From Escherichia phage EC.P1, in the sequence record PQ657772.1: a DNA stretch of 64,000 bases. One strand, given 5' to 3'. Positions 34,759 through 34,965 of this stretch are shown here, in pieces (position 1 is the first letter of the stretch; each line of letters opens with the position of its first letter). The notes below the pieces were generated by a model. The model did not search any database. It saw nothing but the letters and a program-made list of their open reading frames with translations, and was not told the DNA's origin. Both the position numbers and the translations under genes were made by a program.

Positions 34759-34820
34759 GTTACTTCATGAATCATCCGTGTATTTAAAAAGGCATTTCTC
34801 TTTGCCGTCTTGATGTGGTC

Positions 34821-34848
34821 ATTATATCACATCGTTCAGGCTTGTCAA
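34821..34848 (-). promoter_or_regulatory. sigma70-type early promoter, copy A (TTGACA-N16-TGaTATAAT)
   Basis: Perfect -35 and -10 hexamers with extended -10; part of a duplicated unit of roughly 60 bp. Confidence 0.65.
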
Positions 34849-34912
34849 CAACTTTTTTATTTCTTTTTCAATCTCACATCTTGTGATTTTGAAAACTTGC
34901 TTCGTGGTGGTC

Positions 34913-34940
34913 ATTATAACACATCATTCGGCGTTGTCAA
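34913..34940 (-). promoter_or_regulatory. sigma70-type early promoter, copy B (TTGACA-N16-TGtTATAAT)
   Basis: Second copy 92 bp upstream of copy A; same hexamers. Confidence 0.65.
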
Positions 34941-34965
34941 CATCTTTTTTTCTTTATTTTCGAAG

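Follow-up and report, generated by a model that had tools for sequence, protein, structure and literature searches.

Tandem strong promoters and phage terminators located within 5' untranslated regions (5'UTRs) are both established. Bacteriophage T7 carries promoters A1, A2 and A3, spaced roughly 100 bp apart, at the end of the genome that enters the cell first, and the R0.3 RNase III site follows them. Like P1-P2 of the E. coli rrn operons, they are strong host-polymerase promoters that lie on one strand, with no gene between them, ahead of a single operon. The locus examined here has the same arrangement. It lies within a 64,000-nucleotide stretch of DNA from Escherichia phage EC.P1 (sequence record PQ657772.1), referred to below as the window, and contains two predicted sigma-70 promoters, P1 and P2, upstream of an operon that begins with an AAA+ ATPase gene. 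Three properties distinguish it from T7 A1-A3. The copies are recognisably related and their number varies (1, 2 or 3) between close relatives; they lie in mid-genome, where a structural gene block gives way to the ATPase operon; and they are followed by a predicted intrinsic terminator, where T7 has an RNase III site. The locus adds an example of both arrangements, not a principle.

Terminators that lie between a promoter and its gene are documented in Pseudomonas phages, where 42 were mapped within 5'UTRs (PMC10914365). At P112/T102 of phiKZ, >90% of the transcripts stop early to give a 71-nt RNA, which a northern blot confirmed (PMC10914365). The EC.P1 locus resembles P112/T102 in that the gene is preceded by a terminator lying no more than 250 nt after a promoter. 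The output predicted for EC.P1 is likewise a dominant short RNA plus read-through mRNA. The EC.P1 locus differs in that its promoters are of the host sigma-70 type and not those of phiKZ polymerases, in that several genera have kept the element, with compensating changes, and in that the promoter is duplicated. Our reading of the locus, to which we assign a probability of roughly 0.55, is that strong initiation at P1 and P2 would mostly feed an attenuated short leader, with the ATPase genes reached by read-through.

Two related consensus promoters

The window belongs to a jumbo coliphage of the genus Asteriusvirus. The 1-kb region of the locus is 100% identical to Ecwhy_1, fEgEco12 and WPEC5, and the window is 99.5% identical to Ecwhy_1 over 17 kb. 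For genome-wide counts the window was inserted into the Ecwhy_1 record, so that the genome counted combines two nearly identical phages and is a composite. Conservation within the genus was examined in 8 genomes: the window, JNE01, G17/121Q, SP27, ph0011, UE-S1, CMSTMSU and SD-15.

The original prediction described two promoter copies on the minus strand, each with perfect hexamers, a 16-nt spacer and an extended -10 beginning TG(a/t). Direct reading of the sequence and a consensus scan bore out these details and the coordinates (Table 1), and each promoter scored 12/12 with the TG of an extended -10. The prediction also placed the copies 92 bp apart. A repeat finder returned a direct repeat of 55 nt, at 34815-34869 and 34907-34961, whose copies share 82% identity and start 92 bp apart. 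Both promoters lie on the same strand as the ATPase gene, and their spacing fits the range of same-strand tandem arrays, about 70-130 bp. Transcription is predicted to start at about 34905-34908 from P1 and at about 34814-34816 from P2.

The -35 of P1 is invariant in the 8 genomes, and its -10 reads TATAAT in 5 and TACAAT in 3. For P2, GATGTGATATAATG is invariant in the 8 genomes and the -35 is TTGACA in 7/8 and TTGACG in 1/8. Upstream of P1 lies the A-tract cgaaaataaagaaaaaaagatg, which we take to be akin to the proximal UP subsite AAAAAARNR. The A-rich character upstream of the promoter is kept in all relatives. P1 and P2 have the properties of genuine, related, near-maximal host sigma-70 promoters, from which we infer that they are active.

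Perfect promoters are frequent in this genome. The composite contains 30 sites that match the sigma-70 consensus at 12/12 positions, about 27 times the 1.1 expected from 20 Markov-1 simulated genomes. Sites matching at least 11/12 positions number 122 against 29 expected, and 114/122 lie on the coding strand. Three 12/12 sites fall in the 64-kb window. Because the genome is dense in strong sigma-70-type promoters, a perfect site by itself is unsurprising, and it is the pairing that is distinctive. P1 and P2 are the only related pair of perfect sites within one intergenic region of the genome. Outside the hexamers they share 68% identity over 53 positions, while the median among pairs of the genome's perfect promoters is 32%. 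Five other pairs of sites matching at least 11/12 lie within 200 bp of each other; these were rejected as tandem copies since their sequences are unrelated. In each of the other pairs inspected, at least one site is inside a gene or overlaps a start codon.

Two further structures were noted at the promoters. The -10 of P2 lies within the palindrome GATGTGA-N8-(T/C)CACATC at 34833..34812 (-), possibly as part of an operator or because such an initial transcribed sequence is preferred. The pattern TGTG.TA.AAT.{2,4}CACA occurs 4 times in the genome (including Ecwhy_1 229419 and 251785) and 0 times in shuffles. The hairpin between P1 and P2 has arms that are invariant in the 8 genomes and an interior that is variable.

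Promoter copy number among relatives

Comparison of copy number with related phages had been proposed beforehand as a check on the duplication. When this was run, 1, 2 or 3 copies were found, depending on the relative. All 8 Asteriusvirus genomes have two copies, and SP27 has in addition a third, a perfect 94-bp tandem repeat of the P2 unit (100% identical). Among near-full-length megablast matches, defined as those covering at least 80% of the query, 34/35 have the two-copy length to within 15 nt. A single promoter occupies the same place in Klebsiella phages RaK2 and KP13-7 and in three uncultivated contigs (L022-L024), whose ATPases are 73-76% identical. It is likewise single in Erwinia (Eneladusvirus) phages, Cronobacter phage GAP32 and GAP32-like contigs, where the ATPase is 54-60% identical. 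This series of 1, 2 and 3 copies in otherwise collinear phages constitutes a natural experiment on promoter dosage.

P2 is the ancestral copy, because CATCAAGACAG, just downstream of it, matches the sequence after the single promoter of RaK2 and the Erwinia phages. On this comparison, P1 is the product of a roughly 92-bp duplication in the stem lineage of Asteriusvirus. When units from different phages were grouped, P1 copies fell together and P2 copies fell together, which places the duplication before the spread of the genus. Tandem Repeats Finder reported nothing in the window, where the units are too diverged, and does detect the SP27 copy. This fits an old duplication of which only the promoter core is still similar. 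By these comparisons the duplication is real and old.

Both copies keep the -35 and GATGTGnTA(T/C)AAT in the 8 genomes, although whole units are only 56-86% identical between clades, and this argues for selection on both. They are retained even between Asteriusvirus clades that differ by 15-40% in the flanking DNA. A neutral origin, by slippage or unequal exchange in the A-rich intergenic region, would leave an extra copy without benefit. The re-duplication in SP27 has similar boundaries and shows that the site is prone to duplication, and one copy suffices in the relatives. Neutrality fits less well with hexamers and extended -10 elements that stayed at consensus in both copies while 14-44% of unit positions changed, with the presence of both copies in every Asteriusvirus sampled, and with a P1 -10 that drifted in G17, SD-15 and SP27 only as far as TACAAT. 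We consider neutral duplication very unlikely. The duplication has apparently been selected, and two copies would then carry a benefit.

One difference between the leaders was noted in passing. At the place taken by the second promoter in Asteriusvirus, the promoter-terminator interval of RaK2 and KP13-7 contains two additional inverted repeats, CATCAAC..GTTGATG and CATCAT..ATGATG.

A conserved terminator-like hairpin upstream of the ATPase gene

P2 and the ATPase gene are separated by a hairpin with a U-rich tract behind it. This element is about 105 nt from the P2 start and about 197 nt from the P1 start, and it ends 60 nt before the ATG. Given this position, the direct product of strong initiation is more likely to be a short leader RNA. 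The architecture is the same in every relative: promoter, short leader, hairpin with U-rich tract, a small hairpin with GGA in its loop, and the ATPase start 40-60 nt further on. This order was found in all 18 viral contigs and in 3 further phage records, down to 54% protein identity.

In the predicted fold of the 109 nt that begin at the presumed P2 start and run to just beyond the U tract, the terminator hairpin is present (z = -3.07). In the alignment of relatives 93% of the cells of the terminator helix are paired, and 4 pairs show compensating changes (GC to AU, CG to AU). The observed score was reached by 0/500 shuffles, and slid partners were 26-52% paired. The hairpin carries an ARNOLD terminator annotation in the G17 record. 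A terminator scan flagged it in 3 distant relatives (L037, L025 and L032), with 0.1 chance matches expected. The hairpin segment is 92-95% identical between the window and 4 other Asteriusvirus genomes, where adjacent coding DNA is 73-93% identical. The stretch from the hairpin to the ribosome-binding site is 96-98% identical in 3/4 of these comparisons and 77% identical to JNE01.

The form of the hairpin bears on its function. In the window the stem has 10 bp and is followed by UUUACUUUU, and the whole Asteriusvirus hairpin is long, about 17 bp including an internal loop. Such a hairpin resembles RNase III substrates, and its U tract is interrupted. On the precedent of T7, where three host-polymerase promoters in tandem precede the early genes, the two perfect promoters facing the cassette might only drive very high early transcription of it, with the hairpin acting as a 5' stabiliser or as an RNase III-type site like R0.3. 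The distant relatives point elsewhere: their 9-10-bp stem, 4-6-nt loop and UUUCUUUUUU make a textbook intrinsic terminator that is too short for RNase III, and the U-rich tail is kept in all 19 leaders. Promoters that serve only to boost the cassette, combined with an RNase III or stabiliser role of the hairpin, are unlikely.

A covariance model of both helices detected one copy per genome (about 354 kb) at 72.7 bits, with the next best match at about 25 bits. An Rfam scan of 34300-35300 at a permissive E-value gave chance-level matches only (13-23 bits against gathering thresholds of 48-70, E at least 0.7). Conserved features of the leader include its 5' end (AAGAC) and an ANGGA motif. The interval between start site and hairpin varies widely among genera both in length, from about 30 to 110 nt, and in sequence. 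A leader peptide was considered and rejected. The frames that start at the AUG by the first GGA have 2-11 codons, show no relation from one genus to the next, have no ribosome-binding site and are absent from one contig (L023). Two more distant candidates were rejected as counterparts. The PA5oct non-coding RNAs map elsewhere in the PA5oct genome, and at the PAC2/PA5oct-like locus the ATPase is 28% identical, the neighbours differ and there is no such leader.

Proposed output of the leader

The following course of events is proposed. An old tandem duplication of about 92 bp produced P1 and P2 from the single promoter of a conserved non-coding leader, which in RaK2-like jumbo phages stands ahead of the genes for the MoxR-type ATPase and the VWA/metallopeptidase protein. 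Host RNA polymerase would start at both, towards the ATPase gene, and the size of the polymerase footprint makes it probable that both are occupied at once at 92 bp. Most transcripts would probably stop at the terminator and yield short leader RNAs of about 105 nt (P2) and about 197 nt (P1). Only read-through transcripts would carry the GGA-loop hairpin onward to the ATPase genes. By raising the flow of initiation into an attenuated leader, the duplication would give more short RNA and also more read-through mRNA. In Asteriusvirus a third promoter overlapping the U tract (Table 1) could add transcription that bypasses the terminator. This candidate site is conserved in Asteriusvirus, weaker in RaK2 (TATCAT) and absent at the GAP32-like and Erwinia-phage loci. 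The distant relatives have no other recognisable promoter between terminator and ATPase. Where the promoter after the terminator is missing, read-through must supply the operon, which makes it probable that the terminator is leaky and works as an attenuator.

Several points weigh against this proposal. The Asteriusvirus U tract is interrupted and the hairpin has an internal loop, so that termination may be weak, and the consensus terminator scan gave no call for the hairpin in the window itself. There is no terminator between the upstream structural-gene operon and P1; the hairpin therefore probably also ends that operon, and this could be its main role. No conserved antiterminator pairing was seen by eye in the leaders, for which no formal test was made, and attenuation at the leader need not be regulated. 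Transcription from P1 can interfere with P2, and the output of tandem promoters need not be additive. An assembly error could account for the third copy in SP27. A literature search found no start-site, northern or RNA-seq data on Asteriusvirus or RaK2-like coliphages, and no published promoter or start-site description for RaK2 or Asteriusvirus.

The original prediction saw in the duplicated promoter a device for very high early transcription of the downstream cassette. Its premises stood, in that two related near-ideal sigma-70 promoters face the AAA+ gene and both copies have been kept. Its conclusion did not follow directly, given the conserved terminator between P2 and the ATPase start, which the prediction had overlooked. 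Early timing is suggested by the promoter type, but this part of the prediction is less well supported, as P1 and P2 have their TGnTATAAT extended -10 in common with a class that the paper on phage CBB tied chiefly to genes of DNA synthesis (PMC5259590). For annotation, the lesson is that a perfect promoter need not mean high expression of the next gene, since here a terminator intervenes.

The GGA hairpin and the fate of the short RNA

The small hairpin downstream of the terminator has a GGA in its loop that is invariant in 18 sequences. Its stem of 4-5 bp is 81% paired, 3 pairs have changed on both sides, and the covariation score is 0.39, compared with 0.125 in shuffles. RNAalifold did not predict this helix, which is short and of low thermodynamic stability. 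A motif of the form A(U/C/A)GGA precedes the terminator at the equivalent place in 18/19 distinct leaders, the exception being one contig (L033). The ribosome-binding site also contains GGA in Asteriusvirus and RaK2, and does not in most GAP32-like or Erwinia-phage leaders.

CsrA is reported to recognise GGA-containing hairpin loops. The leader resembles CsrA/RsmA sites in having GGA in a short hairpin loop and a second ANGGA about 45-75 nt away. It differs in that relatives do not keep a GGA in the ribosome-binding site, which the second site of a CsrA target typically overlaps, and the likeness is one of resemblance only. Promoter, terminator and GGA hairpin together could represent an undescribed conserved regulatory RNA of RaK2-like enterobacterial jumbo phages, in which two ANGGA motifs flanking the terminator stem perhaps engage host CsrA/RsmA or a phage RNA-binding protein and the duplication was selected for RNA dose. 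We regard this combination as quite unlikely. If true, this engagement would either couple expression of the ATPase operon to host physiology or soak up the regulator.

The short RNA, with its length of about 105 or 197 nt, could also stand alone as a small RNA that acts elsewhere in the cell, its dose raised by the duplication, with the ATPase expressed from the third promoter or by read-through from upstream. In all 5 genera and clades examined the promoter lies upstream of the terminator and never downstream. The conserved AAGAC and ANGGA, the fold z-score and the conserved promoter-like site after the terminator in Asteriusvirus would also suit a small RNA, and phages do make abundant short RNAs from 5'UTRs (PMC10914365). 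We nevertheless think a stand-alone small RNA unlikely. The most conserved part of the region comes after the terminator, from the GGA hairpin to the ribosome-binding site, and points to a role within the mRNA. The start-to-hairpin stretch varies between genera, there is no Rfam match, and relatives that lack a promoter after the terminator need read-through. An attenuated leader with read-through into the ATPase genes is the reading that we prefer.

Irrespective of mechanism, the conserved leader that contains the terminator and the GGA-loop hairpin carries no annotation, belongs to no Rfam family, and is a well-supported candidate regulatory RNA. The leader and the copy-number series are the parts worth following up, and the overall interest of the locus is modest.

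Table 1. Positions of features at the P1/P2 locus, in window coordinates.
Feature	Position	Strand	Remarks
Upstream ORF, 125 aa	34966..35343	-	Last gene of same-strand virion structural gene block
Repeat unit 1, about 92 bp	34871..34962	-	A-rich upstream tract, P1, diverged transcribed tail
A-tract upstream of P1	34941..34962	-	UP-element-like; read from sequence
P1 core	34940..34913	-	TTGACA 34940-34935, 16-nt spacer, TG 34921-34920 (TGt), TATAAT 34918-34913
Hairpin between P1 and P2	34865..34895	-	UUUUCAA..UCACA..UGUGA..UUGAAAA, without U tract; in minimum-energy fold of P1 transcript
Repeat unit 2, about 92 bp	34779..34870	-	A-rich tract, P2, beginning of ancestral leader
P2 core	34848..34821	-	TTGACA 34848-34843, 16-nt spacer with TGa, TATAAT 34826-34821
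First ANGGA motif (ACGGA)	34775..34779	-	About 17 nt upstream of terminator stem
Intrinsic-terminator-like hairpin and U tract	34758..34710	-	Stem AAAGGAACUG / CAGUUCCUUU, inner 7-bp stem; U tract UUUACUUUU 34718-34710
Candidate third sigma-70-like promoter	34718..34690	-	TTTACT, 17 nt, TATAAT; 10/12; overlaps U tract, encloses GGA hairpin
Small GGA hairpin	34696..34709	-	GCCCA-CGGA-UUGGC; invariant GGA 34703-34701 in loop
ATPase ribosome-binding site	about 34662-34656	-	AAGGAAA
AAA+ ATPase, 442 aa	33321..34649	-	MoxR-type / N4 gp24-like; first gene downstream of P1/P2
Second cassette gene	31836..33245	-	DUF2201_N metallopeptidase-like plus VWA-like domain (N4 gp25-like)

Flanking genes and the surrounding region

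The promoters occupy a 316-bp non-coding gap between the 125-aa open reading frame (ORF) and the ATPase ORF. The stop codon of the upstream ORF adjoins the P1 A-tract. The product of the second cassette gene matched Pfam DUF2201_N (3.2e-36) and DUF2201 (9.8e-22), and its RaK2 counterpart is annotated as gp25-like. Two plus-strand ORFs, 34810..34986 and 34883..35068, were rejected as genes since 1- and 2-nt indels in close relatives break their frames. By the ORF list and these indels, there is no gene between the promoter copies. A search of the window for tRNA and tmRNA genes found none.

A 13-nt inverted repeat at 34986..34954 spans the stop codon of the upstream ORF and the P1 A-tract. Its arms are changed in JNE01 and G17 yet complementary, and the 3' arm is deleted in ph0011 and UE-S1. 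Two further signals were noted inside the cassette. Between the ATPase and DUF2201 genes, at 33305..33273 (-), a TTGACA-17-TATCCT site and a terminator-like hairpin overlap. The second signal, at 30428..30400 (-), is a promoter matching 11/12 positions and having the TG, within ORF 30238..30834 and just upstream of the thymidylate synthase gene.

The AT-rich DNA of the locus (30-34% GC), with its strong promoter and short non-coding transcript, might suggest a transcription-primed origin of the T4 type, in which the transcript forms an R-loop. The locus shows no GC-skew switch, and the maximum of the skew, at about 28-30 kb, tracks a change in gene orientation. A repeat search found neither iterons nor further repeats. 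What is conserved here are RNA helices with compensating substitutions and a terminator. An origin at this site is extremely unlikely. As a separate observation, a bidirectional terminator-like hairpin at 29280..29311, the convergence point of plus- and minus-strand operons, coincides with the cumulative GC skew maximum.

Related promoter classes

The single promoter of the GAP32-like and Erwinia phages reads TGAAACG, about 13 nt, TGgTATAAT, and in GAP32-like phages TGAAACG overlaps the stop codon of the upstream gene. This is exactly the 'divergent RpoD-like' class of CBB and GAP32, which was predicted by MEME (PMC5259590, Table S6). The class was tied mainly to DNA-synthesis genes and not to the early small-gene region (PMC5259590). 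At the locus of Asteriusvirus and RaK2, the sigma-70 consensus TTGACA with a 16-nt spacer has replaced that upstream element; the TGnTATAAT extended -10 is common to P1, P2 and the CBB class. A further difference is that the ATPase gene CBB_216 is not among the CBB promoters in the portion of the list covered.

What looks like a counterpart set in the window's genome comprises 21 TGTGnTATAAT sites, with 20/21 on the coding strand. These sites (for example 17355, 46831, 64241, 77141, 92471 and 344950) often have GGACA, GGAACA or GGGAAA about 17 nt upstream. The third 12/12 promoter of the window, at 5530..5503 (-), is like P1 and P2 of the ATGTGaTATAAT type. It lies in a divergent intergenic region, has a 35-nt leader with no hairpin, and is predicted to drive gene 3176..5464 (-), which encodes a 762-aa ClpA/ClpB-type double AAA+ ATPase (Pfam AAA_2 3e-49, ClpB_D2-small).

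The promoter-early stem-loop (PeSL) elements of T4-type phages also join a strong early-type promoter to a stem-loop, and as repeated promoter units they can drive rearrangement. PeSLs are scattered and flank small genes, whereas here no gene lies between the copies. A PeSL-like mobile cassette was rejected, as the covariance model found one copy per genome and the repeat search found the local pair only. A better analogue lies outside the window at 289-307 kb of Ecwhy_1 (L010/L011), where scattered near-identical perfect promoters (AAGTATTGACAAAGTATnTTAGTACTGTATAATAGTTTACATCAAGGGGAG) stand ahead of many small ORFs. This family resembles the T4 PeSL cassettes.

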